A stretch of 47,165 nucleotides of DNA from a virus (Duplodnaviria > Caudoviricetes). The notes under the pieces are model-generated. The model worked only from the letters and a program-made list of their open reading frames with translations, was not told the DNA's origin and searched no databases. The DNA is taken from IMG/VR virus record IMGVR_UViG_3300038406_000164, positions 1 through 47,165 of that record. One strand, 5' to 3'. Of this stretch, positions 2,776-46,898 are shown one piece after another; positions within the stretch are counted from its first letter, which is position 1; every line of letters starts with the position of its first letter. Made by a program: the position numbers and the translations under genes.

Positions 2776-3636
2776 ATGAACATTCAACCTACGGAAGCGG
2801 CTGAGCCCAAGTCAGCTGCTTCCGCCGACACTATCCCATGGCAGAGAATTTTGCTGGTGGGACCTACGGGGGCAGGTAAAAGTACACAGATATGGACCCT
2901 ACCAGGCAAGAAATTTGCCTATGTATTCGATCCAAACACTATCCCCGCCATAATCGGCTGTCCTGATCTGTACTATGCAGAATTCCTCCCCGAGTTTACG
3001 GAAATGGACGCCACGCTGAAGGGCTTCAATAAGGGGGCGCGAAGCGACAAGCCGGCCAGCATCAAGGAACCTACGCTATACCTTAGGTGGATCAAGCATC
3101 TAAATGACTTTGTTGCGACTGAAAGATATAAGGCGTATGACTGGCTAATCTTTGACAGCCTGACGTTTCTCGCCAAGGCAGTCATGGATCGCCAACTGTA
3201 CATCAACAATCGCTATGGTGACATTGAAGACCTCGGTGACTATCGCATTGTCGGCAGCAAGATCAGTGACGTATTTGGCAGTATCGCTGGCCTCGACATT
3301 AACATTCTATCGACTGGGCACATAGCCTCCTTTCAGGATGAAAAGACTAAGAAGATCATTACTCAGCTGTTCTTGCCTGGGAAGGCGCGGAACATGCTCC
3401 CCCTAAGCCATACCAACATATGGCTGGCGATGTCTGAAGAGGGAGAGAAAGGCCAGGAGTACAAGATAAGGACAGTCCCCCAAAGCAAGGGACTTCAGGA
3501 GATACGGTCTAGCATACGCGGCTTAAAGCCAGTTGAGGATGTGACTATAAAGGACTTCAACAATGCTGGGCAGTATGGCATAGGAGCATTAATCCAAAGG
3601 AGTACAAAGAATGCCGTTCATAAAAGAAGCGCTTGA
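2776..3636 (+). CDS. AAA/RecA-fold ATPase, Sak4-like recombinase
   Basis: Walker A GPTGAGKS and Walker B LIFDSLT; lies between the exonuclease and SSB. Start placed at ATG 2776 after AAGGG. Confidence 0.75.
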   Translation: MNIQPTEAAEPKSAASADTIPWQRILLVGPTGAGKSTQIWTLPGKKFAYVFDPNTIPAIIGCPDLYYAEFLPEFTEMDATLKGFNKGARSDKPASIKEPTLYLRWIKHLNDFVATERYKAYDWLIFDSLTFLAKAVMDRQLYINNRYGDIEDLGDYRIVGSKISDVFGSIAGLDINILSTGHIASFQDEKTKKIITQLFLPGKARNMLPLSHTNIWLAMSEEGEKGQEYKIRTVPQSKGLQEIRSSIRGLKPVEDVTIKDFNNAGQYGIGALIQRSTKNAVHKRSA

Positions 3637-8834: not shown

Positions 8835-8973
8835 GCGTGAGCTTCTGTTGAAACTAGCAGCCGCAGTTATACAGCTGTCTAATGGATTTACAATCCCTTC
8901 AACCATTGTTGAAATAGAAGCTCTTCAACAAGAGCTTCTCAAGACAGATGAGCGTGATGTTACTGGAGTTTGA
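8821..8973 (+). CDS. Small hypothetical protein
   Basis: MTETERELLLKL; bridges 8834 and the polymerase C-terminal gene. Confidence 0.45.
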   Translation: MTETERELLLKLAAAVIQLSNGFTIPSTIVEIEALQQELLKTDERDVTGV

Positions 8974-9814
8974 CCTCTCCGGGGCTGAGTGGGTCGTCGT
9001 GGCATACCTTAGCGGCGACCCAAACATGCTTCGAGTTGTAGAAGGGGGCCTACAGCCACACGTTGAGACTGGCAAGCTCATAAGCCGGGCGCCTGAGGAG
9101 TTGATCTTACAGGAGCACAGCCTGCTGGGCAGCACCACTGACCCTGACGAAATACTGCAGGTCAGGCGCACTAACATTCCAGACCTACTGGACGGGGATT
9201 ACTTTCTTCCGCGTACCATGACTATCCGGCAGGCTGGGAAGAAGGGAAACCATAGCCTAAATTATGACTCTCGCTATAGGGGCTTTGCCCTCACGAACGA
9301 AATGCCAGAGCCCGACGCCAAGGTAATCGTCAATGCGTACAGGAATGACGCTTATCCAGGGCTAGTGACTTGGCATGAGAGCATCAGACAGGAGCTTCGT
9401 GACAACAACAGAACATTGACCAACTTACTGGGAAACAAAGTCCGACTATTAGATCAATCAGGACCAGACCTGTGGAAAGCGGCTTACAGTTACAAGCCTC
9501 AATCGACAGTTGGTGACATTGTACGGCGTGCTATGGTCCTAATGTACGAGGATAATGACAGCGTAGGTAGGCTTGCGAAGCCAAAAGCCAACGTCCACGA
9601 CTCAATCCTGGTCAACTACCCAGTCGACCCGCTTGATAGGCTATTGGAGTTTGTTAATCGGACGGTAGGATACATGAGTCCTGAGCTTCATTGTAACGGA
9701 AGGACGTTCAAGCTCGGCGTTGATGTGAAGATGGGGCATAACTGGGGGACGATGGAGAAGTTTGATGCTCACCGACATGTTCGAGTGGGAGTACCTCAAA
9801 CCAGTCCTTCTTGA
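8948..9814 (+). CDS. DNA polymerase A, C-terminal catalytic part (motifs A, B, C)
   Basis: Motif A FDLSGAEWVVVAYLSGD, motif B RQAGKKGNHSLNY, PQSTVGD, motif C NVHDSI. Confidence 0.88.
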   Translation: MSVMLLEFDLSGAEWVVVAYLSGDPNMLRVVEGGLQPHVETGKLISRAPEELILQEHSLLGSTTDPDEILQVRRTNIPDLLDGDYFLPRTMTIRQAGKKGNHSLNYDSRYRGFALTNEMPEPDAKVIVNAYRNDAYPGLVTWHESIRQELRDNNRTLTNLLGNKVRLLDQSGPDLWKAAYSYKPQSTVGDIVRRAMVLMYEDNDSVGRLAKPKANVHDSILVNYPVDPLDRLLEFVNRTVGYMSPELHCNGRTFKLGVDVKMGHNWGTMEKFDAHRHVRVGVPQTSPS

Positions 9815-11175: not shown

Positions 11176-13484
11176 TCGTTCCTCTGAGCCTCTATCTTAC
11201 TGGCTTCCATTGACTCTTGAACCCACACACCAAACACCTTGGTCTTCTCAGTGGCTTCTTCCTTAGTCATGTCGCCACTTTCCACGGCAGCGTGTATTCC
11301 ATTGGTCCAGGCCCTAATCACTGCCGCCCTCTTGACTACCAGCGAAGTCGATACGTCCACCACCTCTTTAAATGCGCGGGCACTTCTCGGATTACTTATC
11401 ATACTAAGGTACAGACGACTACCAGCAATCAAGCCTATTCCAGCAACAGTGGCTCCGGCGAAACCCCCTGCTGCTCCACCACCTCCCGTCCCAGCACTAA
11501 CTACCATCCATGGCATAAGAGCTGTGACAACCCCCTTAACGCCACCCATGACACCCCTACGAGCAATGAACGTAGCGACATCAGGAATCTCCGCGCGGCT
11601 GGCTCTGCGTGCTATCTCCACAAAGTCCCCTAACTCAGACATATTCAGACCGCCTGAGTACTTCAGAAGCTTTTCTGTCGTCAAAAACTTGGCACTGCCG
11701 GGATTATCAAGGCCTAACTCTTTTGCAAAGACATCAACATCAAGCTTAGTGACACCCTCAGCTTTATGTACCTGACCCTTTTGCAACGCCTCGTTGAACA
11801 CTGCATTGGCCAACTTCTGCATAGGCTCAGGACCTCTGCGACCTGTTACCTTAGCAAGCTCGTCAATTATCTGAGGACTACCCATTCTAAGCAGTCCCCT
11901 GGCCAGGCTCTCCGGGGCCGAAGTCACCTCCTTGATACTTACACCTGTCTTCCTAGCACTTATGCTAATACCCATCTTCTGAGATGCCGCGTTATCAAAT
12001 AGCCAAGCTATTTGCTGCGCCATGTCATCTTCTTGGTTACGCATATTTCCTACGTACCACTGGGTATCGCTTACTGGTCGATATGCCTGTTCACCAGCCT
12101 CATCTAAGCTATAACCACCCCACTCCCTACCTGGAAGCCTCGGACCCTTTGTCTTAGATGCCCCAATGGCATTCTCTAGCATATCCGCCTGCACGCCACT
12201 CAACAGGCGTTCCATCCGCACCATATTTGCAGGGCTTGGCTTCAATTTCGCCAGATTAACTATACCCTCTTGTATGACCCCAGCTAGCGTATCCGCCTGT
12301 TTCATGGAGAACGTGCGTTGCTCTGCTTTAGGCACTCCCTTAACAGGACCACCCACTATGTCCAATTCATCATACAGTGGTTGGATATTCTTCTTAATGA
12401 ATTCCCTAACAAACTTAGTGTCTCTCTCAACAGGCAGCACCTCCCCCTTCAAGCCTTTGGGAGTCTCTTTGCCTATTTGCTCCAGTATCTCAGTAGCATT
12501 CTTTCTAGTCTTGACGGGGGTTACATGAATCCCCCTCATGGCGGCTCCATTCAGCGCCGAAGTCCACGCCTCCTCAAACTGATCATTGAAGAATCTAGCT
12601 GTCTCCTTAGCTTCTCTGAGTATATCTCCACTAGCCTCATCATATGTAGACATGGGACCTAGACGCGCTGGTATTCCATCAAACATCTTGGAGATGTCAT
12701 CCATGGCCTTTTCGCCACGCTTCCTAAGCCCACCAGATGTCAGGGGGAACCGCCCCATCACGCTGACGACCATTCTGGAAACCTTGCCACCTTCTCCCAC
12801 CATCACAGGTAGCGTAGCGACATTATTTCTGGATGCCACGCCAGCGAGGCGCCTGGACTCCTTAGTCATCCCAGTCGTCCAGGCTGTGAATCCACGACCT
12901 GTCCACCTGGCAGCACTCAGGCCGCCCATCAAGGCTATTTCTGTAAGTGTCTCATTCTCAGCGTAAAGTCTAAGTTCATCATTAGACAACCCAAGACGAT
13001 CTCTAGTTCCTGGAGGAATTACCTTAAACGCCTCAAGAGCTTCCATCGTCAGTTCAGGCGCGACGGCTCCCCCCACAGCAAAGGCTGAGCCGCCTATTAT
13101 AGCGCCACCAGCTTTTACTAGGGGACCTCCAGGCACTTGCGCGCCAAGGACCGTACCACCTATGGCCCCAGTAAGCGTAGTGCCCATCCTAGTCCATGGC
13201 ATAGGATCATCTACATCTCGCCCCAGTAGATGATCCACAACCCTGCCCATCATTCCGTCTACAAAATCAGGCTCCACTGGCGGGCCAGGCTCTACAGCGG
13301 GCTCCGTCAATGTCTGTTCCGGGGTCACAGCTCCAGGCTGCTCTATAGAGCGTTGCCTAAGCGCATCCATATCTTCTGGGGAAAGGCCAGGAGCAGGCGC
13401 AGTTGTGCTGACACCAGGCCATTCATTGCGCCCTTCCATAGACCTCTGTCTTAGAACTTCCAGATCCTGATCATCAAGTGGCAT
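11172..13484 (-). CDS. Large internal virion/DNA ejection protein
   Basis: 770 aa with Gly/Ala-rich membrane-like segments; located at the end of the podoviral structural operon. Confidence 0.55.
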   Translation of the reverse strand: MPLDDQDLEVLRQRSMEGRNEWPGVSTTAPAPGLSPEDMDALRQRSIEQPGAVTPEQTLTEPAVEPGPPVEPDFVDGMMGRVVDHLLGRDVDDPMPWTRMGTTLTGAIGGTVLGAQVPGGPLVKAGGAIIGGSAFAVGGAVAPELTMEALEAFKVIPPGTRDRLGLSNDELRLYAENETLTEIALMGGLSAARWTGRGFTAWTTGMTKESRRLAGVASRNNVATLPVMVGEGGKVSRMVVSVMGRFPLTSGGLRKRGEKAMDDISKMFDGIPARLGPMSTYDEASGDILREAKETARFFNDQFEEAWTSALNGAAMRGIHVTPVKTRKNATEILEQIGKETPKGLKGEVLPVERDTKFVREFIKKNIQPLYDELDIVGGPVKGVPKAEQRTFSMKQADTLAGVIQEGIVNLAKLKPSPANMVRMERLLSGVQADMLENAIGASKTKGPRLPGREWGGYSLDEAGEQAYRPVSDTQWYVGNMRNQEDDMAQQIAWLFDNAASQKMGISISARKTGVSIKEVTSAPESLARGLLRMGSPQIIDELAKVTGRRGPEPMQKLANAVFNEALQKGQVHKAEGVTKLDVDVFAKELGLDNPGSAKFLTTEKLLKYSGGLNMSELGDFVEIARRASRAEIPDVATFIARRGVMGGVKGVVTALMPWMVVSAGTGGGGAAGGFAGATVAGIGLIAGSRLYLSMISNPRSARAFKEVVDVSTSLVVKRAAVIRAWTNGIHAAVESGDMTKEEATEKTKVFGVWVQESMEASKIEAQRNE

Positions 13485-14522
13485 CTACTTCGCCTTCTTA
13501 GCACGCGGCTTGGGCTTGTCAGTGCCCCCGAGCCTCGCCCTATACGCCTCCTTAGAGGCCAGTATGCTATCAACCTCATCCATCAGTTTAACACCAGCGC
13601 CCGATACATTAGGCTTGGAAGCCTTTATCCGTTCAGCAACTACAATCTCCGGAAGGTTCGTTGCACGAGCCAGATCAGTCACCGTCTTCCCTTTGGTCGC
13701 AGCATCTGCAAACTGGGAACTTGTCTGATCCATAAATATCTTACGGCTCTCCTTCCAGCTGGATGGAGCGTCAGCTGGCGCGGTAGTATACTCCTCAAAC
13801 TTGTCAGCCATATCCTTATTGTATCTGGCTTCAAATCCCTTATGTTTCCTGGTCCTAGCCGCCTTCTGTTTCGCGTTATACTTCTTAGCAGCAGTCACCT
13901 TATCAGCTTCCGCAGCCTTCTTATCGTCAGCCCTTTTCTGCAATCCACCCTTTACCTTGGCCACTCCAGCCGGTACGGCAGCGCCTGCCGCGCCCATAGG
14001 ACCAGTGATGGCAGCAGTTCCCAATCCCTCACCAACCCTCTTCCCCGAAAACGATGGCTCCTCTACGGGGCCGGAAGAGAATCCCTGACCAAAGCCTTGT
14101 GCAGCTCCAACTGCACCACCGATCTTAGCAGTGGTGGCTACTTTAGAAGGGCCTCCAAGCACACCTATACCAAGCCCCGTCAGGAATGGTGCGGCCTTCT
14201 CTGCCGCGCTCACAAATGACTGATTATTCTGCTTTAGCATGTCCAGACGATTCTGGTGCTCCTGGCGCATCTGGTCAAACTGAGACTCGTTGATGCGCCC
14301 AGCAGCCAAGTCCACTCCAGCCTGTACCCACGGCATCATACCGCCCAGGATAGTATCTATGAACAGCACGTTAGCCGGATCGTCGTACCTGCTATCGTCC
14401 GGTGAAAGAAGAGACTGCGCCTGCCCCTCGGGGGAAGGAGAAGAACCCAAGGATGGTGAAGCTGGCGCAGCCTCAGTTGGACGACGCTCTGGCATTGGCA
14501 TGTTAGGCGTTGGTTCCATCAC
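13485..14522 (-). CDS. Putative internal virion protein
   Basis: Gly/Ala-rich helices, basic C-terminus, gene context. Confidence 0.5.
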   Translation of the reverse strand: MMEPTPNMPMPERRPTEAAPASPSLGSSPSPEGQAQSLLSPDDSRYDDPANVLFIDTILGGMMPWVQAGVDLAAGRINESQFDQMRQEHQNRLDMLKQNNQSFVSAAEKAAPFLTGLGIGVLGGPSKVATTAKIGGAVGAAQGFGQGFSSGPVEEPSFSGKRVGEGLGTAAITGPMGAAGAAVPAGVAKVKGGLQKRADDKKAAEADKVTAAKKYNAKQKAARTRKHKGFEARYNKDMADKFEEYTTAPADAPSSWKESRKIFMDQTSSQFADAATKGKTVTDLARATNLPEIVVAERIKASKPNVSGAGVKLMDEVDSILASKEAYRARLGGTDKPKPRAKKAK

Positions 14523-14526
14523 CTAA

Positions 14527-14547
14527 ACTGGCCCATTTTGGGCCAGT
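14527..14547. promoter_or_regulatory. 21-bp palindrome, copy 2
   Basis: ACTGGCCCA-TTT-TGGGCCAGT. Confidence 0.75.
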
Positions 14548-14550
14548 CCT

Positions 14551-16332
14551 CTATGAACCTCCCGGACGTGGCGGCGTCCGTTGAGGTGCTGGGGTTATCC
14601 TAAATGCTTCCACGTTCTGAGGTGAGCCTAACCTACCGCCACCGCCACCTGCACTAGCACCACTAAATCCTCTGGCTATCGCATTGCCAAAGGCCCTAAA
14701 TGCAGCACCTATCTTTTCCTGCTGAGCTGCTGCGGCCTTGGCTGCATCTTGCTGCTTCTCATAGTCAAACTTTTCTCTGGCAAGACTCTGGTTCGCCTCC
14801 TGAGATCGGGTCATACGCTCTTCGCGCTCATTCCTCAATTCTTCATTTCTCTCAGCCCGTTCCTCGCCAGCCTCAGCGTGCTCCATCGACATTTCAGTCT
14901 TCTCAAGCTCAAGTTCCTTGCGCTCCATCTCCGCCTTACCGAGCGTCTCAAATTCCTCGTCTATAGGATGGGTTGACTGAAGCTCTTTTCTTGGAACGCC
15001 AGTCTTTCTCTCCTGCCTACGCTGAAGCTCCTCATCGTATATCGCGCCGGATAGGCTGGGCGTAATCAGCCTTGGATTCTTGGCATAGAGAGTCATGGTA
15101 TCGTCGCTCATGCGTCTAGCCAGAATCTTAGTCCCCGACACGCCAATCTGACGCTCCATATTCTGGTCGAACTCCGTGATCAGACCTTGCACCGTATCCT
15201 GCAATACACCAGAGAACTGCTCTGGAGACGATGCCTGACCAATCTGAACCAGGTGCTGATTGATAACCGCATTCGTCAGCCTATTACCTGGAATGCCCCT
15301 AGCAATAGCCATCTTATATGCAAGCCCCAAAACTAGCGACTCAATACGAGCGCTGTCTACAGCTGTTTTATTAAGCCCATGCGAATTTATCAACGCATTA
15401 GTCGTAGTTTCTACCTGCTTTTGAAGCACGGTGTCGCTCAGGTCAACCAAATCTTCAGCGCCAATCATCTTCATAAAGCCCTGAACCTGCCTTCCAGCTG
15501 ACTGTAGTGTTCTAGTAGCATAACCTAGCAATCCCAACGTCTCAGGCTTGCCCGCGAACAGGGAGGTCATGTTAACCGCATCTTCAATAGTAGATACGAT
15601 GCCAGTGGCTCTTGTGTTGATATCAAGTGCTAATTCAGACTGCTGCTTCCGGTCAAGCGGGATAGTAATCCCCTCCCTAAGCAGATCATTTGATCTCATG
15701 GGATCTTTCGTATTAATTCCAAGTGATCTAACAAGTTGCGGATCAGCCTGTTCCTCCCCTGCTGGGATAGTTCTCTGCCCTTCAAATGACCGGACTGGGG
15801 AACCCTCCTGAAACGGCGCGACTGGCTGCGGTTCCTCTTCCTGAACGGCCATCCTATCTTGCATCTTTGGCTGCTGCTGCATAGCCTGCGAATTTCTCAG
15901 CTCAGTGCCCACCTGATTGAACAGCGTGTTGGCGTCAATCTGTCCACTCAGAATAGCCTTCATAGTTTGCTGTATCTCTCCTGGAGATGCATCCTTCATC
16001 TTGCCAGCGAACATAGTTCTCATACCCTGCATAGTATCAGGATCGAGCCCCATTACCATCCGATTTAGGTTCTTGAACTGCTCACCCTTCGGATCAATCC
16101 CCATCCTTTGGGCCGTCTCCCTAAGTAGGAACTCCCGAGCTGGCTTCGGCAAATTAGAGTCGAACACCTTCAACAGTCGATCAGACAGGTCAAGATCTTC
16201 ACCACGCTTCTCAGCCTGCTGACCCTTAACCTGGAGCATCTCAGCATACTGTTTATGCTGGTCCATAAGTTGAGACTGTGTATCTCTGAGACGCTGATAC
16301 TCATCTAGCGCCTGCCCAGGCATCATGACCAT
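14551..16332 (-). CDS. Putative DNA ejection protein
   Basis: Gln/Glu-rich, helical, 593 aa; gene context. Confidence 0.55.
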   Translation of the reverse strand: MVMMPGQALDEYQRLRDTQSQLMDQHKQYAEMLQVKGQQAEKRGEDLDLSDRLLKVFDSNLPKPAREFLLRETAQRMGIDPKGEQFKNLNRMVMGLDPDTMQGMRTMFAGKMKDASPGEIQQTMKAILSGQIDANTLFNQVGTELRNSQAMQQQPKMQDRMAVQEEEPQPVAPFQEGSPVRSFEGQRTIPAGEEQADPQLVRSLGINTKDPMRSNDLLREGITIPLDRKQQSELALDINTRATGIVSTIEDAVNMTSLFAGKPETLGLLGYATRTLQSAGRQVQGFMKMIGAEDLVDLSDTVLQKQVETTTNALINSHGLNKTAVDSARIESLVLGLAYKMAIARGIPGNRLTNAVINQHLVQIGQASSPEQFSGVLQDTVQGLITEFDQNMERQIGVSGTKILARRMSDDTMTLYAKNPRLITPSLSGAIYDEELQRRQERKTGVPRKELQSTHPIDEEFETLGKAEMERKELELEKTEMSMEHAEAGEERAERNEELRNEREERMTRSQEANQSLAREKFDYEKQQDAAKAAAAQQEKIGAAFRAFGNAIARGFSGASAGGGGGRLGSPQNVEAFRITPAPQRTPPRPGGS

Positions 16333-17252
16333 CAGCTTAGATCCCCATACTGCACGGTACGGTAGCCATACCGCTCACCAACCGATCCAGGCAACACCTC
16401 TTGGACGTCACTGGCAAATACGCCAATATACCGTTCCCCTCCCATATCGTACTCATATATGGGAATCAAGAACGGCTCAATCACGCCAATCTGTACAGCA
16501 TCTGACTTCAGCATCTCGTCACTAAACAGTGACCCGACCAAGCCTATTCCCGCTCCAAACATAGCGGCGCTATTCTGTGCATTTGCTATGCTAGCGTTCA
16601 GCTGCATCTGCCTCTGTTGAATAAACGGCTCCTGCGCCTGTCCAAACCCACTTGCCGTCTGCCCAAACGCCCCAGCAAATGTAAGGGGATCGCCAATGCC
16701 AATCTGCCTGAGAATATCCTGCGACGTATGCCTAGAGAACTCATTCTGCTGCTGGCGCGTAACCCCCAACTGCTCGGCCAGAGTCATCTGTCCCGTGCGG
16801 GCGCCCTCGCGCAGTATCTCAGCCGTTGAGAAGTGCTTATCCAGTGCCTCAATGCCAGGCGTTGACGTATCGTAGCCTGATCCGAACTGCTTCCTCAACT
16901 TCTCACGCAGTAGTTCTTCCTGCTGGCCTATTTCCCTCTCGAGACCTGGTGAGACTGGAAGGTTACCTGCCAAGGCATCCAATGAGCGCTGGGTCAGTCC
17001 CAACTCAAGCTCTTCACGCATATCATCAAGTTCACTGGGAATCTTGCTGATACTCGTAATGTTCCCATTCTCGTCAGTCGTAACCTCAAATCCTTCCTGC
17101 GCGGCCAGGAACGGCAACAGTACTGCCTGCTGAGCCCTATTCTGCTCAATAATCTCTCGTTGAAGCGCCAGAAGCTCAGCCTGATTCTTCTGCAGCTCCT
17201 TTTCCTCAGCCGAAGGAGGGGGAACCTTAACTCCACCACCGCCCATCATCAT
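16332..17252 (-). CDS. Putative ejection/pilot protein with a C-terminal S74-like intramolecular chaperone domain
   Basis: N-terminal GGGG..PPP and Gln-rich coil; C-terminal FSDEMLKSD...IYEYD...IGVFASDVQEVLP...TVQYG. Confidence 0.65.
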   Translation of the reverse strand: MMMGGGGVKVPPPSAEEKELQKNQAELLALQREIIEQNRAQQAVLLPFLAAQEGFEVTTDENGNITSISKIPSELDDMREELELGLTQRSLDALAGNLPVSPGLEREIGQQEELLREKLRKQFGSGYDTSTPGIEALDKHFSTAEILREGARTGQMTLAEQLGVTRQQQNEFSRHTSQDILRQIGIGDPLTFAGAFGQTASGFGQAQEPFIQQRQMQLNASIANAQNSAAMFGAGIGLVGSLFSDEMLKSDAVQIGVIEPFLIPIYEYDMGGERYIGVFASDVQEVLPGSVGERYGYRTVQYGDLS

Positions 17253-17253
17253 C

Positions 17254-17649
17254 TTACAGGTTCCTCACGTAGAATAATTTACTGCCGTCACCAGCGTAGG
17301 GCTGCATCTCTTCCACATACTTCTTTAGAGTTTTAAGAAAAAAGGCGCTCTTGCTCGTATCTACACTAAATATAAAACTTCTCACTCCCATATGGCGCAT
17401 TGCGTTCTCATAATACCCAACTAGCCGCATAAATGTCCATGGACGTCGCTTATCCTGGCGCATCACCAGCGGGCCAGCCAGTATCATGTCATCCCTAGGC
17501 GTTGTCGCAACAAACCCTACGAGAGCTTCACTCTCGTCATGCGCCATAACGGTAGGGAATGTTAGCTCACTCTTGTCCCATCCCTCCATCTGCATAAGGG
17601 TATGACATTCTTGATAATCGTCAGGGCTTTCTGCTACCCTATAATTCAT
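17254..17649 (-). CDS. GNAT-fold acetyltransferase-like protein
   Basis: YRVAESPDDY...LVGFV...LVMRQDKR; typical position between nozzle and ejection genes. Confidence 0.55.
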   Translation of the reverse strand: MNYRVAESPDDYQECHTLMQMEGWDKSELTFPTVMAHDESEALVGFVATTPRDDMILAGPLVMRQDKRRPWTFMRLVGYYENAMRHMGVRSFIFSVDTSKSAFFLKTLKKYVEEMQPYAGDGSKLFYVRNL

Positions 17650-17921
17650 CTTTTCCTCAACTCCGGAGGAACATTTTGCAACTCCGAACGCGCCCGCATC
17701 ACGGCTATGTCTTGCCTGATGCTGCTAAGTGCATCGATCATCTTCGTGGTAAGCTCGCTCTGTGTCTTGGTATACTCAACCGACGCAGCTCGGAGCACAA
17801 CCATCTCCTTTTGAATCTGTATCACATCCGACTTAAGAGTATAGTAACCCCCAACCAATCCCAGTGCCACAGTAACAACTGTTACGATCTGACCAAGATC
17901 TATTGTGTTGTTGATTTGCAT
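17646..17921 (-). CDS. Single-TM coiled-coil membrane protein (possible lysis accessory)
   Basis: N-terminal hydrophobic helix followed by a coiled coil. Confidence 0.5.
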   Translation of the reverse strand: MQINNTIDLGQIVTVVTVALGLVGGYYTLKSDVIQIQKEMVVLRAASVEYTKTQSELTTKMIDALSSIRQDIAVMRARSELQNVPPELRKR

Positions 17922-18142
17922 ACCTTATCCTTCCAACCTAAACACTCGCACAAGTAATCCAATTCATTACCCTGTATGCGGTCGCGTAGCGCCCGCGGGA
18001 GCGCCATCATTGCTGCTAACTCCTCCTTATTGAGCACCTGCCTCTCATATCGCTGGCAGAAGTCGCTCGTGGGCGCGGCCCTTTCAGTGCCATCTATCTG
18101 CCCGAAGCATATTATAAAGCAGACCACCCCTTTATCAAACAT
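17900..18142 (-). CDS. Possible o-spanin-like protein
   Basis: Cys-rich with a hydrophobic N-terminus; overlaps the end of the i-spanin candidate. No clear lipobox. Confidence 0.35.
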   Translation of the reverse strand: MFDKGVVCFIICFGQIDGTERAAPTSDFCQRYERQVLNKEELAAMMALPRALRDRIQGNELDYLCECLGWKDKVCKSTTQ

Positions 18143-18359
18143 CGAGCATATCTTCCCAAAGACTCTTGGACTCCTCGTCAGATAGGCCTCTAATCATCTC
18201 CCGCAAATGCTTGCCATGCTTTGTCGCCTCCAGTACACGGACCGACGCCTCAGCTACAGCCTTATCTTGACCTGCAGTCAACAGCTGCCTATTGTTCAAA
18301 TACTCAGTAAACACCAAGATCAGTTTCAGGCCAGACACTAGGACTGACGACCATGACAT
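18135..18359 (-). CDS. Possible i-spanin-like protein
   Basis: N-terminal hydrophobic segment plus a helical tail. Confidence 0.35.
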   Translation of the reverse strand: MSWSSVLVSGLKLILVFTEYLNNRQLLTAGQDKAVAEASVRVLEATKHGKHLREMIRGLSDEESKSLWEDMLDV

Positions 18360-19030
18360 TACGTTAGCTCTACGAAGAAGCTCTGTAGCGTGTTCAAGAG
18401 GCCCTCATCATCCATATCAATGGATACGTTAGCTGGACTTGCATTGTAAATCTTCCATGCAAGCCACGCATCGGATGCGGCAGTAATCTCCGCATCTGCA
18501 GCAGGTGTAAATGTGCGAGGGTCTATCCCCCCAACTGAGTGACTCCCATAACATCCAAATACGATAAGGGGTGCCGCACCAGCTCCAGCCAGAACAGTCT
18601 GAGCTGTTGGATTAGTATTACTTATTTGAGCCCCAGGAGTTGATATGTTCACTGATACAGCTGGATTGTTGCCACGGAATACTGCAAGTTCTTTTCTAAC
18701 TAATGCAAATGCCGCACTCATGCCAGTGAGCGATGTACCCCCCTCATTACCCACGGCTATCTTGTAGCTCGCTATCTGACGTAGTGTATCATCTCCAGAT
18801 GCAAGCCCCGAGTTGATTATGTTAGTAAAGCCGCTTGGCACTACAGCGGTTGGAACTGGTAGTATTCCTGTTCTACACATATCCAGCAACAGCATAAAGT
18901 CGCCCTGCTTAATACCCGCCGGAGCCGTTATGTTCTGCCCCGTACTAAGAGCAGTGTCAAACAATGAGACTGATGTCAGGGGGCCAAATACATTACCTGC
19001 TGAGCGAGACCATCCTGGAAGGAAGTTCAT
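18359..19030 (-). CDS. Putative tail/receptor-binding structural protein
   Basis: Beta-rich, Ala/Gly/Thr-rich (ITAPAGIKQGDFMLL); TAATG coupling. Confidence 0.5.
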   Translation of the reverse strand: MNFLPGWSRSAGNVFGPLTSVSLFDTALSTGQNITAPAGIKQGDFMLLLDMCRTGILPVPTAVVPSGFTNIINSGLASGDDTLRQIASYKIAVGNEGGTSLTGMSAAFALVRKELAVFRGNNPAVSVNISTPGAQISNTNPTAQTVLAGAGAAPLIVFGCYGSHSVGGIDPRTFTPAADAEITAASDAWLAWKIYNASPANVSIDMDDEGLLNTLQSFFVELT

Positions 19031-34957: not shown

Positions 34958-35302
34958 ATGAAGTTCTTTTTTAATGGCGCCGAGACGGACCTTGAGTACA
35001 AGATCGAGGACATCGAGGTCGCGCCCTCAAGTCATGGATGGGCCAAGGTTACCTTAAAGCTGACTGATGTGCATGGAGTGTACCCAGAGAAGTCAGTGAC
35101 TATGACCATCGCCGAGATGGACATTGACTTTATTCAGCACCATCTTATGATGTACCGCAATGCTCGGGATGCATCCAGGCGCGAGCCTACGGCTCGTGGG
35201 CATTGTGGTACTTGCGGTGTCGCTCTTGGGCAGGACGACGATGGACCAGATTGCCCAGTGTGTGTAGAATGGTGGATTCAAAACCCGCCACCCGCTAACT
35301 AA
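34958..35302 (+). CDS. Hypothetical protein with a C-terminal CxxC..CxxC
   Basis: CGTC...CPVC; GGAG upstream. Confidence 0.55.
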   Translation: MKFFFNGAETDLEYKIEDIEVAPSSHGWAKVTLKLTDVHGVYPEKSVTMTIAEMDIDFIQHHLMMYRNARDASRREPTARGHCGTCGVALGQDDDGPDCPVCVEWWIQNPPPAN

Positions 35303-35900: not shown

Positions 35901-36054
35901 ACACCTTAGGATGAAAGCCCGGAGAGCGGAGAGAAAGATGCGCAACGATTATGGAGATGACCCCGGCGGCGCCGGGATGGGGATTGTGCTGTTAGTGGCG
36001 TTTGGCGTGATTGCGGTAGCAATCATAGCCATAGGGGCGTGGATCTTCTCATGA
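35893..36054 (+). CDS. Small membrane protein
   Basis: GAGGAG RBS; C-terminal TM helix. Confidence 0.5.
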   Translation: MTEHLRMKARRAERKMRNDYGDDPGGAGMGIVLLVAFGVIAVAIIAIGAWIFS

Positions 36055-36387
36055 CCGAAGGTCATGAGGGCGAAGTCCACAGAAATGTGCGCACCTAATT
36101 CGCTTTAGAAAGTTCCACCTTACCTATGGCTCAACTGCACCGTGCAGCCGGGATGCCACCCCCTTCGTGTGCCCCAAGGGGCACACGTTGCACAGGGGCT
36201 ACATGCTGCAACGCACTATGTAACACATATACTACATGTGCATTGCACTATGTAGCAATATTACTACACATTGCATTGCAATATAGATGTGTTGCATTGC
36301 ACCATGTTGCATATGGGCTACAATGTAGCCCAACCATCACACATTTACGCAACCATTGGTTGGTTTTACGCATAAAGCCTCAACTAA

Positions 36388-36408
36388 ACTGGCCCAAAAT
36401 GGGCCAAT
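36388..36408. promoter_or_regulatory. 21-bp palindrome, copy 4
   Basis: ACTGGCCCA-AAA-TGGGCCAAT. Confidence 0.7.
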
Positions 36409-36542
36409 GTAGTGGTAAATCGGTCAACATACGTGATATTTGTGCATTGTAGGACGCTTGTAGTACTGTATTTCTTAATGCTGCACTGCGGCATGGTACA
36501 TTTATACTACACACACGCTTCGCCATGTGCTGCGCACATGTC

Positions 36543-36576
36543 AACGAAATAACCGGGCAATTGCTTGCCCGGTTAT
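36543..36576 (-). terminator. Terminator for 36591..37130
   Basis: 12-bp stem ATAACCGGGCAA/TTGCCCGGTTAT with a GCAA tetraloop on the - strand, running into TTATTTCGTT. Confidence 0.7.
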
Positions 36577-36590
36577 CCCACATGCACGTG

Positions 36591-37130
36591 TTACTTCCCA
36601 ACACCATTTGAATTGATGTGTGTACGCATCAATTCAATCAATTGCTCCTCATTCACACCGGCCGCGACCATTGCTTTGCGCAATTCCGAACGTGGGCCAG
36701 CAATACGCGGCGCGCGTTGCGTGTGCATCAATGATGCCACATCAACCACACCGCTCCACATTGCAGCATCCAATTGTTCGTTCGGCGACGCCGAACGAAA
36801 TACTTTTTGCTGCAAAATGATCGCGGATGACATCGCTAACGCTTTCATGTCCGCGTCATCAACATTCGAAAAATCGAATGTTTGCTTCAATTGGAAACGC
36901 CTACCGTCATTTTCCGACGGTTTGACCGAATACCATGCAAGCACGGTATGCGCTCCGGTGTATTCCAATTTGCGTATTGCTTTGACGCCATCGGCAATTG
37001 GTTCCAACATCGCGGTTGGTTGCTCAGCAATCGTAGGTTTCAATACCTTTTTGGGTTTCTCAACCTTCGATTGTGTTTTCGTGTCGGGGGAATTGACGGT
37101 GCTGATATTTTCAACGTTTGACATTAGCAT
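36591..37130 (-). CDS. Hypothetical protein in the AG/CT-poor island
   Basis: 179-aa ORF followed by a terminator. Confidence 0.65.
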   Translation of the reverse strand: MLMSNVENISTVNSPDTKTQSKVEKPKKVLKPTIAEQPTAMLEPIADGVKAIRKLEYTGAHTVLAWYSVKPSENDGRRFQLKQTFDFSNVDDADMKALAMSSAIILQQKVFRSASPNEQLDAAMWSGVVDVASLMHTQRAPRIAGPRSELRKAMVAAGVNEEQLIELMRTHINSNGVGK

Positions 37131-37189
37131 GTTTCCATTTTGCTATGTCCAACATTTGGGCGCGTCATGACGCACCATGCGTATTTGAT

Positions 37190-37465
37190 TTATGTGTTCC
37201 GGTGTATTTCGGCGATTAGCATCGAACGCCAATATTCGGCGCGCGATGCGCATTGATCGCCCGCACGTTGCCATGCGGCGGCGTCAATCACGTATGGGTG
37301 CAACGCCATACGGTAATCAAAATGTGCTTGGTTGCTCCACCATATAACCGCGTCGCGATATGAACGCGCCCGATGTGCGCGATCATTCAACAACGTATTA
37401 AATTCGCTCGGCAATACCGGTGCGAGCATTCCCGTGCTGCGCACGGGTGTATTTTGTGCGTTCAT
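37190..37465 (-). CDS. Hypothetical protein in the AG/CT-poor island
   Basis: Start context GGGAAAAGCACATG is shared with other early genes. Confidence 0.6.
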   Translation of the reverse strand: MNAQNTPVRSTGMLAPVLPSEFNTLLNDRAHRARSYRDAVIWWSNQAHFDYRMALHPYVIDAAAWQRAGDQCASRAEYWRSMLIAEIHRNT

Positions 37466-37834
37466 GTGCTTTTCCCATGTGTTGACACACGGCGCGCCAT
37501 GAAACGCCCAAACGTTGAACGGTTAACAATGTCAATGAGCGGCGTCCGTTGGACGCCAGCAGCAACATGCCGCCACAAACATATTACCACGAATATGCGT
37601 CAACGCATAATTTATTTTACATTGCACATCACATATTCGTGATGTGCGTAAGCACATCAACTAGCATGTAACGTATCAGCGGTTGGTTGTATGTGTTGCT
37701 GCGCAACACACGCCTGGCGTGCATGGCCTAATCGGTTGGCTCCACCAACCGTAAAAAAATAAAAAGACGTTCCGTGGAAAATTCTGGTGCTCCGCACCAC
37801 ATTTCCTGTTGCTTCGCAACAGAGTCACCGGGTG

Positions 37835-38344
37835 CTACGCACCCGATTCACTATTTTCATTCTCAGCACCATGCCGACTCGCTTCGCTCGTAGGCTCAGC
37901 CACGACATCAATCACGCCTGGCATCTTAGGCATTGGAAGGCCAAGCCTACCCGTGACTTCCCTCAATTTATCCTCAATTTGCGAATCGCTCATCTTGCTA
38001 ATAGCTACATTTACATTCACCTCGGTCTCAGTCTTCTCCGTGAATCCAGCTACTCTGGCAATTTGCACAAGCGACGCGATGTACTTATCCGGTGCACGTT
38101 CCGCAAATGCGCTGATTGCATCAGCGCTTGGCATACACTCAAGCCATCCCGCAAGCAGTTCGATAAAAGGCATTCTATCGTATTGCTTCAGCCGGGCGCG
38201 AACTTCCTCAGCCGAGAAGCCAAGGAATTCAGGCCTTGCGCTATCTCTGTGCGTCACTTCCTTGCCATAAGGTGAGCGTGTTTTGCGTTGGCGCACCGTC
38301 TTCTGTGCAGCTACAGCAGCCACAGCAGGGTCATTCGGGTCCAT
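37835..38344 (-). CDS. Putative terminase small subunit
   Basis: C-terminal EVNVNVAISKMSDSQIEDKL...VIDV is typical of TerS-like proteins. Start uncertain (the ORF extends to 38437). Confidence 0.55.
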   Translation of the reverse strand: MDPNDPAVAAVAAQKTVRQRKTRSPYGKEVTHRDSARPEFLGFSAEEVRARLKQYDRMPFIELLAGWLECMPSADAISAFAERAPDKYIASLVQIARVAGFTEKTETEVNVNVAISKMSDSQIEDKLREVTGRLGLPMPKMPGVIDVVAEPTSEASRHGAENENSESGA

Positions 38345-38924
38345 CTTCTGATTGACGAGATGCGGATCGTTCGCGTCGGACCACTGCGTTGCCCGAGTAC
38401 GGAACCTTCGGCTCTTTCCTGCCATGCGCCAACCCAACTCCCCGCGCGGCCTTGAGGGCCGCGCTCTGTTGCTGTTTCAGAAACTTGTTGTGATCAATTT
38501 GCCTTTGCAATCGTTCCATGGCCATCTCAGCACGCACATTTATGACGCGCGACTGAGTTAGGTTATCATTGGCCACTTCAGCGGCCAAGAATATCCATTG
38601 ATCGATGGCAGTCATCGACGTCATCAAGTACCCATCGGGCCTCTTAATCACGGGAAGACCATACAACTCAACCCATCTCCACAGCGTCACAATCGAACCA
38701 ATGCCCAGATAGTGACAAATGCTCTCACCACCAATCAACAGATTCTGATTTGGATCAATGTATAGGCGTGCTGCATGGCTGGCACCTGGCGTGTCACCTA
38801 CCGAATGCTTTGCATTCGGGACTGTGCCCACATGTGTCGCGCCCCATGGCTTAGATGTGCCACGTAAATCAGGGTGGACTTTGAAGCCATCATGATTACC
38901 CATGGCGGTCCTTTGGACCGCCAC
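38331..38924 (-). CDS. HTH DNA-binding protein
   Basis: GGESICHYLGIGSIVTLWRWVELYGLPV (MerR/excisionase-like HTH). Confidence 0.6.
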   Translation of the reverse strand: MAVQRTAMGNHDGFKVHPDLRGTSKPWGATHVGTVPNAKHSVGDTPGASHAARLYIDPNQNLLIGGESICHYLGIGSIVTLWRWVELYGLPVIKRPDGYLMTSMTAIDQWIFLAAEVANDNLTQSRVINVRAEMAMERLQRQIDHNKFLKQQQSAALKAARGVGLAHGRKEPKVPYSGNAVVRRERSASRQSEDGPE

Positions 38925-39084
38925 GCGTGTTGAGGATCATTTGCTCAATGTACGCCCATTGCTTCTTCACATCATCGCTCAGATCACGCTTCATCTGCTC
39001 GATGTATGCGCATTCGGGCGCAATGCGTTCGGGCGCGGCCTGCGGCCATGAGGTGAAAATATTTTGGGGCCGGACGGGTTTCAT
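38896..39084 (-). CDS. Small hypothetical protein
   Basis: Coupled ORF with an internal AYIEQM duplication. Confidence 0.35.
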   Translation of the reverse strand: MKPVRPQNIFTSWPQAAPERIAPECAYIEQMKRDLSDDVKKQWAYIEQMILNTRGGPKDRHG

Positions 39085-39269
39085 GCACTAAAGGGTACTA
39101 GAAAATGGCGCGGCAAGCAACCCACGGCCCCCAAATGCACAAATGCAAAACCATATATTATCGGACGCTATACGTCCCCGTGTAAAATAACATGAAATAT
39201 GTATCTCCTAATAGCATTATCTTAGTAGGGAACAAATCATGAACAATAAAAAGAGGAAATGTGATTCAT

Positions 39270-39298
39270 TTGCTTTCCCGTGGCGTGTGTCCGATAAT
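39270..39298 (+). promoter_or_regulatory. Sigma70-type promoter for the helicase gene
   Basis: TTGCTT-N17-GATAAT in an AT-rich intergenic region. Confidence 0.5.
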
Positions 39299-39357
39299 AT
39301 ATGGATATGCATTTATACACACCGCCCAAAGCACCCTTAAAAAAATGAGGAAAATCA

Positions 39358-40878
39358 ATGAGTTCGGACGAGCAAACTCCTAATCCTGAAAAAGATGAGA
39401 AAATTGTTAAGATAACCGACTACGGCAATATGGAGGAAATGTTTTCCATAAAAACCCCAGACCACATTATGGGCACGTCAGACGACTCACTAGCAGTGCT
39501 TTTCGCAGATAAATTTCATAAAAACGTGCGATATGTAGGCCAATGGGGCAAGTGGATGGTATGGGAAGGTACTAAATGGGAAATAGATCATATGCTCAGA
39601 GCCTATGAGCAAACACGAGAGTTCATGCGAACTGTTGTTGAGGGCTTACAGAACAAGATATACAAATCCAATCTCAAGGATCTGATTTCTCCTAAATGCA
39701 CAACAACTGAGCGTGCTCGTGGTCGGATGGAGGCTCTCAGAGACTCTCGTGCGAAGGTTAAGCCCCTGTTATCATTTCGCACAATCAACTCTGTGTCAGC
39801 CATGGCGCGAGCAGATAGGCGTATCGCTACAAGCGTGGACACATGGGACAGTAATCCTTATCTATTGAACACGCCTGATGGCACCATTGATCTACGCACT
39901 GGTCATATGCTTAACCATGACCCCCTGGATTACATAACCAGAACTACAATGATTGCGCCTTTGTCACGAAAGCCAAGACGATGGCTCGACTTTCTTAAAA
40001 CTATTATGCATGGCGATGAGGAGATGGTTCGCTATCTACAAAAGATATTTGGCTATTGTCTCGTCGGTGAAACCAAAGAGCACCAAATGTACTTCGCCTA
40101 CGGCACAGGCGCAAACGGCAAAGGCGTCACCCTCAATACAATGCGAAACCTTCTGGGCGATTACGGCGTTGAAGCCAATATTGAGACGTTCATCATAACA
40201 GGATACGAGCGCCATCCAACTGAGCTAGCTGACCTCCGCGGAGCGCGCCTCGTAACATGCGGAGAAACTGACGAGGGCCAACGCTGGGCTGAGGCACGTA
40301 TTAAAACTCTAACGGGCGGTGATCCCGTGAAGGCGCGTTTTATGCGTCAGGACTTCTTCCAATACCAGCCACAATTCAAACTATTTCTGGCTGGCAATCA
40401 CAAGCCGCGCCTGAGTAATGTAGATGAAGCATTGCAGCGACGTTTTAGGCTCATACCCTTTACATACACAGTCCCCCGTGATGAGCGCGACCTTGACCTG
40501 GCAGAGAAAATGAAAGTTGATTGGCCCGGCATCCTTGATTGGGCTATCGAAGGATGCATCATGTGGCAAGCTGAGGGATTGGAGCCACCAGCAGTTGTTG
40601 CGGAAGCTACCAAATCATATCTATCACAGGAAGATGCTATCACCTCATGGTATGGTGACTGCTGCGTTCCAGATGACAAGGCATTCACCTACATCAAAGA
40701 CCTATTTGCATCATGGGCCAAGTGGGCGCAAGACAGCGGTGAGCATCCTGGAACAAAGCGCGTACTCATGGGCCACCTTGAGGAGCGTGGACCACTACTC
40801 AAAATCTTGAAAGGTCGGCGTTCCGAAGGTCTCGGCTTCCACGGAATAGCTCTGGTGGGTCCCGCTGAGTTGAAATGA
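39358..40878 (+). CDS. P4/D5-type SF3 helicase (D5_N plus P-loop); no recognisable primase domain
   Basis: KWMVWEGTKW, LLNTPDGTIDL, Walker A GTGANGKG, IKTLTGGD, GNHKP, RRFRLIPF. Confidence 0.85.
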   Translation: MSSDEQTPNPEKDEKIVKITDYGNMEEMFSIKTPDHIMGTSDDSLAVLFADKFHKNVRYVGQWGKWMVWEGTKWEIDHMLRAYEQTREFMRTVVEGLQNKIYKSNLKDLISPKCTTTERARGRMEALRDSRAKVKPLLSFRTINSVSAMARADRRIATSVDTWDSNPYLLNTPDGTIDLRTGHMLNHDPLDYITRTTMIAPLSRKPRRWLDFLKTIMHGDEEMVRYLQKIFGYCLVGETKEHQMYFAYGTGANGKGVTLNTMRNLLGDYGVEANIETFIITGYERHPTELADLRGARLVTCGETDEGQRWAEARIKTLTGGDPVKARFMRQDFFQYQPQFKLFLAGNHKPRLSNVDEALQRRFRLIPFTYTVPRDERDLDLAEKMKVDWPGILDWAIEGCIMWQAEGLEPPAVVAEATKSYLSQEDAITSWYGDCCVPDDKAFTYIKDLFASWAKWAQDSGEHPGTKRVLMGHLEERGPLLKILKGRRSEGLGFHGIALVGPAELK

Positions 40879-40910: not shown

Positions 40911-40957
40911 GCACATTCCGACGCCCCGCGTCGGGCTCGAAACCATAGGGGAAGCAA

Positions 40958-41164
40958 ATGCCACACATCATAGTTACACGTATAACTCACGACATGATCA
41001 GGGCGCGTTCGATTGGCAACTTCCGGGATAACTCAACAAAGTTGCATAATGGCAACATCCAGATATATGTCGATAACGATGTGCTCGACTATATCAATGA
41101 GCAGCGCATCGGCGCCGAAACTGACAATGATGTAGTTCAGCGGATCGTATCCACAAAGCAGTAA
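40958..41164 (+). CDS. Small protein with an RHH-like C-terminus
   Basis: IQIYVDNDVLDYI...ETDNDVVQRIV; RBS GGGGAAGCAAATG. Confidence 0.6.
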   Translation: MPHIIVTRITHDMIRARSIGNFRDNSTKLHNGNIQIYVDNDVLDYINEQRIGAETDNDVVQRIVSTKQ

Positions 41165-41196: not shown

Positions 41197-41212
41197 CACA
41201 AGGGGAAGCGTC

Positions 41213-41443
41213 ATGACTAAAATCCCAAGCATAGACTTTCTGACTGATTGGTATCAGCGCTGGTGCGTTGAACAGGGGCTGCCGTCCATGTCCGCACAGG
41301 AACTCCTCAATGAGGACGGTCTAACTTGGCGCCAGCAGAACATAATCAGCCATTTCCTGGCGCTATGGGATAACCTGGACGCACAACGAGGCGAAGCCGA
41401 GACGGCAGGTTCCGGAACGCCACGTGGCGGCTATGCACCATGA
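41213..41443 (+). CDS. Hypothetical early protein
   Basis: RBS GGGGAAGCGTCATG. Confidence 0.6.
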   Translation: MTKIPSIDFLTDWYQRWCVEQGLPSMSAQELLNEDGLTWRQQNIISHFLALWDNLDAQRGEAETAGSGTPRGGYAP

Positions 41444-41732: not shown

Positions 41733-41764
41733 ATAGTTGTCAATCCAACACGTAGGGGAAGCAA

Positions 41765-41986
41765 ATGACCTCCATCAAAAAAGCCCTAGATGCTGGCATC
41801 ATCGACCTTGATGCCATCGTTCAGGCAACAGAAGCCCAGATGTTTGGCCTGGAAAACCCTGGCTTCTGCATCGCCTGTGGCAATGAGCAAGACGGCTGCG
41901 AGCCTGACGCCCGTGAGTACCGTTGTGATTCTTGTGGCGAACACCAGGTATACGGTGCCGCCGAAATCCTGATACACATTGCATAG
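41765..41986 (+). CDS. Small zinc-ribbon protein
   Basis: GFCIACG..CEPDA..CDSCG; RBS GGGGAAGCAAATG. Confidence 0.7.
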   Translation: MTSIKKALDAGIIDLDAIVQATEAQMFGLENPGFCIACGNEQDGCEPDAREYRCDSCGEHQVYGAAEILIHIA

Positions 41987-41997
41987 GGAGAAAGCAC

Positions 41998-42255
41998 ATG
42001 AAGGTCAAAGAACTGATAGCTCAGCTGTCTGAATACAATGGCGAGTCTGAGGCCCGTATCGCAACTGGTACGTTTGTAGAGAATGACGGTCCCACCTCAT
42101 ACTTCGATGACATGGAATCTTTCCCCGTCCACGAAGTCACGGAGGGTCCATGGTTGGCGACCGAAAAATTCCAGTCGGTAGCCATCTTCTTCGTGGACAC
42201 ATCTTATCGCAGCGACAGCGATACGGCCATAGAACTACGCGACGACGACGTTTAA
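41998..42255 (+). CDS. Acidic hypothetical early protein
   Basis: MKVKELIAQL; RBS GGGAGAAAGCACATG. Confidence 0.65.
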   Translation: MKVKELIAQLSEYNGESEARIATGTFVENDGPTSYFDDMESFPVHEVTEGPWLATEKFQSVAIFFVDTSYRSDSDTAIELRDDDV

Positions 42256-44924: not shown

Positions 44925-44941
44925 AACAAGGATAAAAGCAC

Positions 44942-45193
44942 ATGAAACTGTGGTTACTAAAACAGTTCGAAAGCAACGGCTACGATACGTATGACAGTAT
45001 GGTAGTAGCCGCCGAGACGGAGGATGATGCGCGCCTCATTCATCCATCTATTGGATGGCAAAATAAGACCGGATGGCCCACTGTGTATGACGACTGGGCC
45101 AAAACTCCTGATCAAGTAAAGGTCACGCTGATTGGGGAGGCGGTGGATGGGACAGAACCTGGCGCTATCCTTAGGAGTTTTAATGCTGGCTAA
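44942..45193 (+). CDS. Small phage hypothetical protein
   Basis: GYDTYDSMVVAAETEDDAR...ILRSFNAG; start context AAAGCACATG. Confidence 0.7.
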   Translation: MKLWLLKQFESNGYDTYDSMVVAAETEDDARLIHPSIGWQNKTGWPTVYDDWAKTPDQVKVTLIGEAVDGTEPGAILRSFNAG

Positions 45194-46269: not shown

Positions 46270-46358
46270 AATATGTTGCGCTCTCGTTTTTCCCGTGATA
46301 CAAATTTGGTATGTGCAATCGCACATAATCAAAATAAATTTCAATCACGGGTGAAAAT

Positions 46359-46727
46359 ATGGCTACGGAAGAAGTCGTCGCAAAAACTAAGGAAGGGGCC
46401 GTCGTCACGTTCAATTACGACTTTGGCGCTACTCTCGATGAGATGGTTGATCGCTTCACTTTGGAAATCTGCACTGCACACACCAAGCGCAGCTTGGTGG
46501 TGGCAGCTCAGGGGCACGCTCGCAACCTCATGAGGGCTGGAAAGAGCCCACAGGAGATCAAAGCGGCTATGGATTCGTGGAAGCCCGGCGCGCCACGTGT
46601 CTCCAAGTCGAAGGTCGATCGCCTGAACGAATTGATTGCTCAGATGAGCCCAACCGAGCGCGAGGAGTACATCAGGGAACTGGCTGGCAACCGCCCTGCG
46701 TCGCCGAAGAAGGGTGCCGCTGCATAA
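46359..46727 (+). CDS. Hypothetical protein, possibly nucleic-acid binding
   Basis: 122-aa ORF after a candidate promoter TTGCGC-N17-TACAAA (46276-46304). Confidence 0.65.
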   Translation: MATEEVVAKTKEGAVVTFNYDFGATLDEMVDRFTLEICTAHTKRSLVVAAQGHARNLMRAGKSPQEIKAAMDSWKPGAPRVSKSKVDRLNELIAQMSPTEREEYIRELAGNRPASPKKGAAA

Positions 46728-46730
46728 GTT

Positions 46731-46880
46731 AATGGTGGGCGGCCGGAGGTTAAGGTAGCCACATCTAGTCCGTCCGGGGATTCCGTGTGGACCCACCATT
46801 TAAACTAGCCTCCCAGTTCATGTGCTTTCTGGGACGGCGCGAGGGGTCAGCGTTGGGAGTTCGCTGGCCCCTCTGCATTT
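46731..46880 (+). ncRNA. Candidate structured sRNA with an anti-start-codon loop
   Basis: Closing stem 46731-46800; hairpin 46808-46838 with loop TTCATGTGCTTT; hairpin 46841-46873, then a T-run. Confidence 0.6.
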
Positions 46881-46898
46881 TAGGGGTATGGAAAAACT

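Follow-up and report, generated by a model that had tools for sequence, protein, structure and literature searches.

Why should the loop of one small hairpin in a phage genome be the exact complement of a 12-nt sequence that lies across the start codons of several dissimilar genes? The question is raised by IMGVR_UViG_3300038406_000164, a phage record of 47,165 bp, complete and with direct terminal repeats, which we analysed at its full length and refer to as the window. The sequence-only reading of this DNA had taken the hairpin for part of a stand-alone antisense RNA of 73 nt that would shut off a set of genes in trans, their start regions having been standardised for that purpose. Our own answer keeps the antisense RNA and places it differently: judging from sequence, we put at about two-thirds the probability that an RNA from the folded stretch 3' of a 122-aa gene works in trans as an antisense, pairing with three or four mRNAs of the phage itself and so keeping them from being translated.

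Hairpin 2 and the start codons that match its loop

The phage encodes a capsid, portal, terminase, split DNA polymerase, primase, ribonucleotide reductase, exonuclease and Sak4-like ATPase, and a PHROG scan of its 73 proteins gave neither an antirepressor nor an integrase among the hits. Its nearest capsid match in GenBank phages is at about 30%; a close cultured relative was not found there, nor were direct DNA relatives found among those phages. The exact hairpin had no match in the viral contigs searched. A genome-collection search returned five matches, including two on phage-sized contigs. The DNA polymerase is divided between two genes (5894-7522 and 8948-9814) with the endolysin and small genes in between, a split that also occurs in several relatives, and an AT-rich gap upstream of the primase (39180-39330), with repeated ATATTATCGGAC words, is a possible replication origin. 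The hairpin itself sits in a 171-nt gap, at the end of a series of small plus-strand genes, between a 78-aa gene and the 122-aa gene (46359-46727, plus strand) of unknown family that we call the anchor.

Re-reading the sequence and scanning both strands bore out the coordinates previously given for hairpin, loop and 12-mer. Hairpin 2 (46808-46838, plus strand) has a 9-bp stem with one bulge, in which GCCTCCCAG (46808-46816) pairs with CTGGGA-C-GGC (46829-46838), and it presents the closed 12-nt seed loop TTCATGTGCTTT (46817-46828), which is exposed rather than buried in the predicted fold, unpaired at 0.95-0.98 in six folding windows. The whole of 46728-46898 folds at -73 kcal/mol (z -3.09, equalled by 0 of 200 shuffles), with a fold frequency of 0.72 for 46806-46885. 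Also predicted are a branched hairpin 1 (46731-46800, plus strand), for which a search for targets gave no convincing one, and hairpin 3 (46839-46881, plus strand), whose 14-bp GC-rich stem with one G-U carries the loop TTGGGAGTT and is followed by ATTTT. Hairpin 3 is likely a 3' stabilising hairpin or a weak terminator; it is not among the 18 terminator-like sites called in the window, and it departs from the pattern of an intrinsic terminator (GC-rich stem plus at least five T in 8 nt) in that ATTTTAGG comes next. Two further ideas were rejected: a conformational switch, suggested earlier, in which loop 3 would pair with stem 2 (the forced fold reaches -24.6 against -41.6 kcal/mol, and is thus 17 kcal/mol less stable), and an antisense mini-gene beginning in the loop, which would have 18 codons and no Shine-Dalgarno (SD) sequence. 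Rfam 15, with 4227 families, gave no match at gathering score in the whole window.

The exact 12-mer, AAAGCACATGAA, has four copies in the window and none elsewhere in it. Three are in sense orientation and span the ATGs at 37465 (37461-37472, minus strand), 41998 (41991-42002, plus strand) and 44942 (44935-44946, plus strand), while the sole antisense copy (46817-46828, minus strand) is exactly the hairpin loop. By a Markov expectation such a 12-mer should occur 0.006-0.010 times per genome; allowing at most one mismatch, five matches are observed against a mean of 0.32, a number reached in 0 of 100 shuffles, and GCAC directly followed by ATGAA is found at 3 of 71 called starts in the window and at 1 of 2241 in relatives. 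The claim that all sense copies sit on starts holds for the exact 12-mers but not beyond them, since a one-mismatch copy at 39265-39276 starts just a 10-codon ORF and a 10-nt match in another register falls inside the exonuclease gene at 314.

The best-ranked target is an 85-aa gene (41998-42255, plus strand), where the tag over the ATG (41991-42002) is part of a 14-nt complement (duplex -19.0, net -16.0 kcal/mol) and where the start, with the SD sequence GGGAG, was found by our own gene caller. The tag at 44935-44946 covers the ATG of an 83-aa phrog_5444 gene (44942-45193, plus strand; net -12.6 kcal/mol), a start backed by a family profile that matches from residue 1. The third tag (37461-37472, minus strand) lies in a structured site over the ATG of a 91-aa ORF (37190-37465) on a leftward transcript (net -10.4 kcal/mol), and this is the weakest start, missed by the gene caller and with no homologue in the set searched; by synteny, the relatives G001-G003 have a gene of 89-94 aa at the equivalent position. 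A partial tag of 10 nt, GCACATGAAC (2772-2781, plus strand), is a sequence match over the likely ATG of the Sak4-like ATPase (duplex -18.3, net -8.6 kcal/mol), and the earlier choice of that start at 2776 is supported, in that it gives an N-terminus equal in length to those of homologues; an alternative ATG at 2728 is overlapped by a promoter-like TTGACA-17-CAATGT. Ranked by duplex plus opening energy, the three 12-mer targets come first to third of 74 starts, with the Sak4 start in fifth place. Apart from the 12 nt, all that the three have in common is an SD-like purine run, and the four genes code for the ATPase and three small proteins of unknown function.

Other repeated elements deserve mention in their own right. 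A second shared start motif, GGGGAAGCAAATG, occurs with its variants at 40945-40960, 41752-41767, 41200-41215 and 39265-39279 (minus strand), placing it at the starts 40958 and 41765, and an antisense loop for it was not seen; the 40958 and 41440 proteins have a common C-terminal look-alike stretch, which suggests duplication. Palindromes with GTG(C)...(G)CAC arms lie near early promoters at 34902, 36526, 37434, 37478, 37643, 40900 and 46310; some enclose TTGACA or TATAAT, and the arm has GCACA(T) in common with the start tag. In addition, the palindromic element TGGCCCAAAATGGGCCA has five dispersed intergenic copies in both orientations (4307, 14529, 21697, 36390 and 41712) and could be an operator, a late promoter or a processing site.

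The region behind the anchor gene in related phages

The anchor protein tells us little by itself: it has no PHROG match and only short, weak matches in Pfam, and its AF2 model, with a pLDDT of 87, has no fold match at E<=0.001 (the best VIA Z is 4.3), an absence that is not evidence of a new fold. Since the protein alone as query found no viral locus, the capsid and exonuclease proteins served as queries for relatives, each search giving 80 loci. Of the related records, 13 of 23 and 25 of 26 had an anchor homologue, and 39 relative records were fetched entire or in large part, their genes, and hence their starts, being called by our own simple script. Altogether 69 sources had an anchor, 68 of them with a gap of at least 50 nt behind it; these 68 gaps formed 50 clusters at 65% protein identity, and after eight small clusters were dropped we kept 42 representatives (the window and 41 others), each with at least 14 called genes.

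A structured region follows the anchor's stop codon in nearly all relatives, with one to four long hairpins in 40 of the 42 gaps, and these gaps fold more stably per base than other gaps (-0.415 against -0.314); among four close relatives, 6 of 21 stem pairs show compensatory changes. C-rich anti-SD loops are present in 18 of 41 relatives as against 79 of 782 other gaps (Fisher p=9e-8) and 24 of 185 strongly folded ones. A distant named relative, Desulfofustis phage MD01, described as metagenome-assembled with a host predicted from CRISPR (bioRxiv 10.1101/2023.02.06.527410), has the anchor, a promoter-like site and a C-rich anti-SD loop. Both the 122-aa anchor and its structured 3' region are conserved in a large family of uncultured phages.

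Do loops and starts change together within this family? Accessible k-mers from the first 135 nt behind each anchor were compared with start windows from -22 to +12, the anchor and the next gene being left out, and exact complements were counted in a phage's own genome against the other 40, with the window excluded (n=41). The thresholds were chosen after the window, G004 and G007 had been inspected, so that G004 and G007 were known before the design of the test and G024, G025 and G026 were not. At 9 nt, 21 of 2154 own start windows had a match against 5.8 expected (permutation p=2e-4, 10 genomes); at 10 nt there were 11 own-genome matches against 1.2 (p=1e-4, six genomes), and at 11 nt 5 against 0.2 (p=5e-4). 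Coding windows gave 1 and 0 at 9 and 10 nt, sense k-mers 6 and 2 (4.2 and 0.9 expected), and complements without reversal 5 and 0, while the 782 other intergenic gaps gave 109 against 95.5 and 33 against 22.7. Compared with randomly drawn other gaps, the anchor gap stands out at p<1e-4, or at p=0.0013 and 0.0057 without G004; when G024 is removed as well, the counts are 13 against 4.8 at 9 nt (p=0.005) and 4 against 1.5 at 10 nt (p=0.06). The expected covariation in related phages is thus found, different loops at the equivalent position matching their own start regions, although a perfect own-genome 9-nt match is absent in 31 of the 41 relatives, including the three closest by capsid (G001-G003); in G001, one of these three, two early genes have a match of 7 nt.

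In the clearest cases loop and tag words differ between phages, and some of the tags are not Shine-Dalgarno-like. For example, the word GAAAGGC(AAT) stands at eight called starts in G004, where a second segment adds a 15-nt match, ATAGGTGACA at three starts on both strands in G024, GAGGACTCA at two starts in G007, and AACCAA(G) at five starts in G026, upstream of the SD, in the spacer, or at codons 2-3. Matched targets of at most 150 aa make up 19 of 24, compared with 1454 of 2288 genes, a modest lean towards small, rare accessory genes. A further candidate was the leftward early gene at 36591-37130 (minus strand), 60 nt downstream of the 37465 ORF, which is a distant paralogue of the anchor (HMM E 4e-12 to 9e-5, seven family members); the paralogue's start ranks high as a loop match in some genomes (1 of 88 in G007, 2 of 51 in G024, 4 of 66 in G006, 4 of 28 in G044), but as a single family-wide conserved target it was rejected, with matches of at most 6 nt in most of the 31 homologues listed.

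Standardised starts do not of themselves imply silencing. The relative G005 (L111), which has two anchor-like genes, carries the tag GGAGAAAGAT at nine starts in early genes at about 11400-18460, and an antisense loop for it was not found; common tags alone therefore prove nothing. A search for antisense loops elsewhere that would match recurrent tags, covering six genomes, found none. In G004 (L110, L109), 30-34 nt of the anchor trailer recur twice elsewhere in the genome, at about 35090-35270.

Could such matches arise with no pairing in the cell at all? The tags might be by-products of the duplication of early-gene cassettes, with the hairpin a terminator or stabiliser and its loop derived from an inverted start copy. 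The G005 tag and GGGGAAGCAAATG at 40958 and 41765 are just such motifs with no antisense copy, the hairpins do occupy terminator positions (a U tract in 18 of 42), and CACAT/ATGTG is dense at 36001-40000 (31 against 0-17 per 4 kb). Stem k-mers, too, are in cognate excess, to a smaller extent, at 8 to 9 nt as well as ahead of the starts, with 63 against 31.9 for 8-mers at starts and 6 against 1.7 for 10-mers at -56 to -22, and this excess is left unaccounted for by the antisense-loop model. We nevertheless judge the by-product account unlikely: in the window sequence identity does not run past the edges of the loop, in G004, G024 and G026 it hardly does, and the excess is antisense only, restricted to start windows, and specific to the anchor gap when set against 782 others, 185 strongly folded ones included.

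Strand, transcript and mode of action

If the hairpins belong to an RNA, from where is it transcribed? Upstream of the anchor (46276-46327, plus strand), reading by eye picked out a weak sigma-70-like TTGCGC-17-TACAAA, and the palindrome list gave TATGTGC-AATC-GCACATA at 46310-46327; from its sequence, this region is likely the promoter of the anchor transcript together with a 5' hairpin or operator. Promoter and terminator are both weak in the window itself, and scanning upstream of the anchor gave no promoter site of at least 9/12, the best reaching 8/12 in a second scan. Across the family the signals are clearer, with promoter-like sites upstream of 15 of 42 anchors (window included) as against 119 of 2237 other genes, or 13 of 42 against 77 of 782 genes in a free-gap comparison. 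A stem plus U tract follows the anchor in 18 of 42 cases on the sense strand and in 5 on the antisense strand, and inside the shared helices of anchor gaps there are 33 G-U against 4 A-C, whereas other regions have 171 against 94. Because of this U-tract and G-U bias the RNA is most likely on the anchor strand, where it would form the 3' portion of the anchor transcript. What stands of the proposed 73-nt RNA is that it would be antisense to its targets; we think it more probable that the element forms a structured 3' end on the transcript from the 122-aa gene than that it is a stand-alone gene.

The mechanism that we favour would run as follows. The stable 3' end of the anchor's short transcript, either whole or released by processing, would serve as the regulatory RNA and would accumulate during infection, its 12-nt loop pairing in trans over the start codons of three or four phage mRNAs and so blocking translation initiation at the AUG or SD. 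The result would be a delayed negative feedback that dampens small accessory or early genes. In relatives with C-rich loops the RNA would use a generic anti-SD seed, and a subset would have private seed/tag pairs. Covariation and strand bias speak for a multi-target antisense RNA acting in trans, as had been suggested, but the target set of the window is small, at three or four genes.

An RNA that pairs with the tags might also activate or protect its targets, by opening leaders or shielding them from nucleases, or might work mainly as an anti-SD RNA on host mRNAs. Two of the window's targets are structured, with an opening cost of about 9.8 kcal/mol, generic C-rich loops occur in 18 of 41 relatives with no private phage target, and RNAIII is described as both activating and repressing (PMC12612679). 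The duplex, however, covers the AUG itself in the window and the SD region in G004 and G024, and since such pairing is hardly compatible with initiation, repression is likelier and we regard this second account as decidedly improbable. That the tag is instead a protein site, bound either by an RNA-binding translational repressor with a minus-strand decoy loop or by an orientation-independent DNA-binding protein, strikes us as very unlikely indeed. In its favour, the minus strand folds into a mirror hairpin (predicted at -36.1 kcal/mol, z -5.54), a minus-strand promoter-like site lies at 46924-46896 (13 such sites were found, with 14.6 expected from chance alone), many palindromes near promoters also have GCACA(T) as their arm, and the anchor protein is of unknown function. 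Against it, the G-U and U-tract bias places the RNA on the plus strand, 8 of 42 anchor gaps have an antisense promoter-like site compared with 87 of 782 other gaps, the sense-orientation test is null where a DNA site would be expected in both orientations, and a conserved protein would need wholly changed specificity from phage to phage.

Known regulatory RNAs and the meaning for the phage family

Does the antisense RNA that we propose resemble anything familiar? The small RNAs of the AbcR, 6C and RNAIII type offer one description, with a seed exposed in a single-stranded loop (here in the predicted fold), complementarity to several distant initiation regions (here 12-14 nt at three and 10 nt at a fourth), and seed and targets that change together between genomes (here carried by 10 of 41 relatives). 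AbcR has a few adjacent hairpins with loop seeds, and the analogy drawn with it earlier is a mechanistic one only. As described in PMC6486639, the 6C sRNA binds many mRNAs through C-rich loops without chaperones in bacterial gene regulation, and cuckoo RNAs, as defined in PMC4615179, have two to four adjacent hairpins with CCUCCUCCC in every loop. The window and its relatives are like these in having a few adjacent hairpins and loop seeds, and the C-rich loops of 18 of 41 relatives are similar; 6C and cuckoo RNAs keep a fixed loop motif, however, whereas the loop in the window belongs to this phage alone, covers the AUG and is not rich in C, and all three of its hairpins are without CCUCCUCCC, which places it outside the cuckoo RNAs as so defined.

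RNAIII of Staphylococcus aureus is reported in PMC12612679 as a quorum-controlled RNA of 514 nt that encodes a 26-aa peptide and whose 3' stem-loops pair with the RBSs of early-expressed genes, apparently without Hfq. The anchor RNA would share with it the order of a coding sequence first and then, towards the 3' end, stem-loops for pairing with RBSs, but RNAIII is bacterial, while here a phage gene of 122 aa precedes a trailer of about 70-170 nt whose seed varies between relatives. The ORF is larger than the size given there for dual-function RNAs of the RNAIII/SgrS type (below about 70 aa), although by analogy the anchor RNA may work like one.

Among phage RNAs, c4 of P1 and P7 pairs around the RBS of the phage's own mRNA, likely through loop-exposed sequences, and phage-specific pairing underlies P1/P7 heteroimmunity (as set out in PMC12197685). 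Hairpin 2 would be like c4 as a phage-encoded RNA with likely loop pairing near the RBS of an own mRNA; on that account, c4 controls a single antirepressor (ant) mRNA of a temperate phage, whereas the targets in the window are several unrelated, dispersed genes on both strands, and we do not count hairpin 2 as a c4 RNA. The same source describes PreS of lambda and VpdS of VP882 as Hfq-bound phage sRNAs that act mainly on host genes or host sRNAs; the RNA proposed here would likewise be a phage-encoded small regulatory RNA acting after transcription, but against a set of tagged starts in the phage itself. In the literature that we covered, mostly the main texts of open-access papers, no phage RNA targeting such a set was found. 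The sequences point to an RNA that a phage likely makes against several of its own genes, an antisense RNA whose seed is a hairpin loop; in part of the family, seed and tags match in a genome-specific way.

A more ambitious proposal is that the 122-aa protein and the hairpin scaffold are kept as a unit throughout the family, a re-programmable silencing cassette in which the protein would bind the 3' hairpins of its own mRNA while each phage rewrites the loop and the tags of its accessory genes. We offer this as speculation and think it improbable as a whole. If true, the phage would make its own RNA-guided repressor of translation, one that works without Hfq and sets the timing of the phage's early programme, and its generic anti-SD loops would perhaps act on host mRNAs. 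Transcription or protein repressors are the usual explanation for the turning down of first-expressed accessory genes in lytic phages. If our reading is true, a widespread family of uncultured phages would be using an RNA whose seed evolves together with short tags placed at the start codons of the same phage, so that the seed/tag pairing would identify the regulon from sequence alone, and the natural seed/tag pairs of the window, G004, G024 and G026 could be compact orthogonal translation switches.
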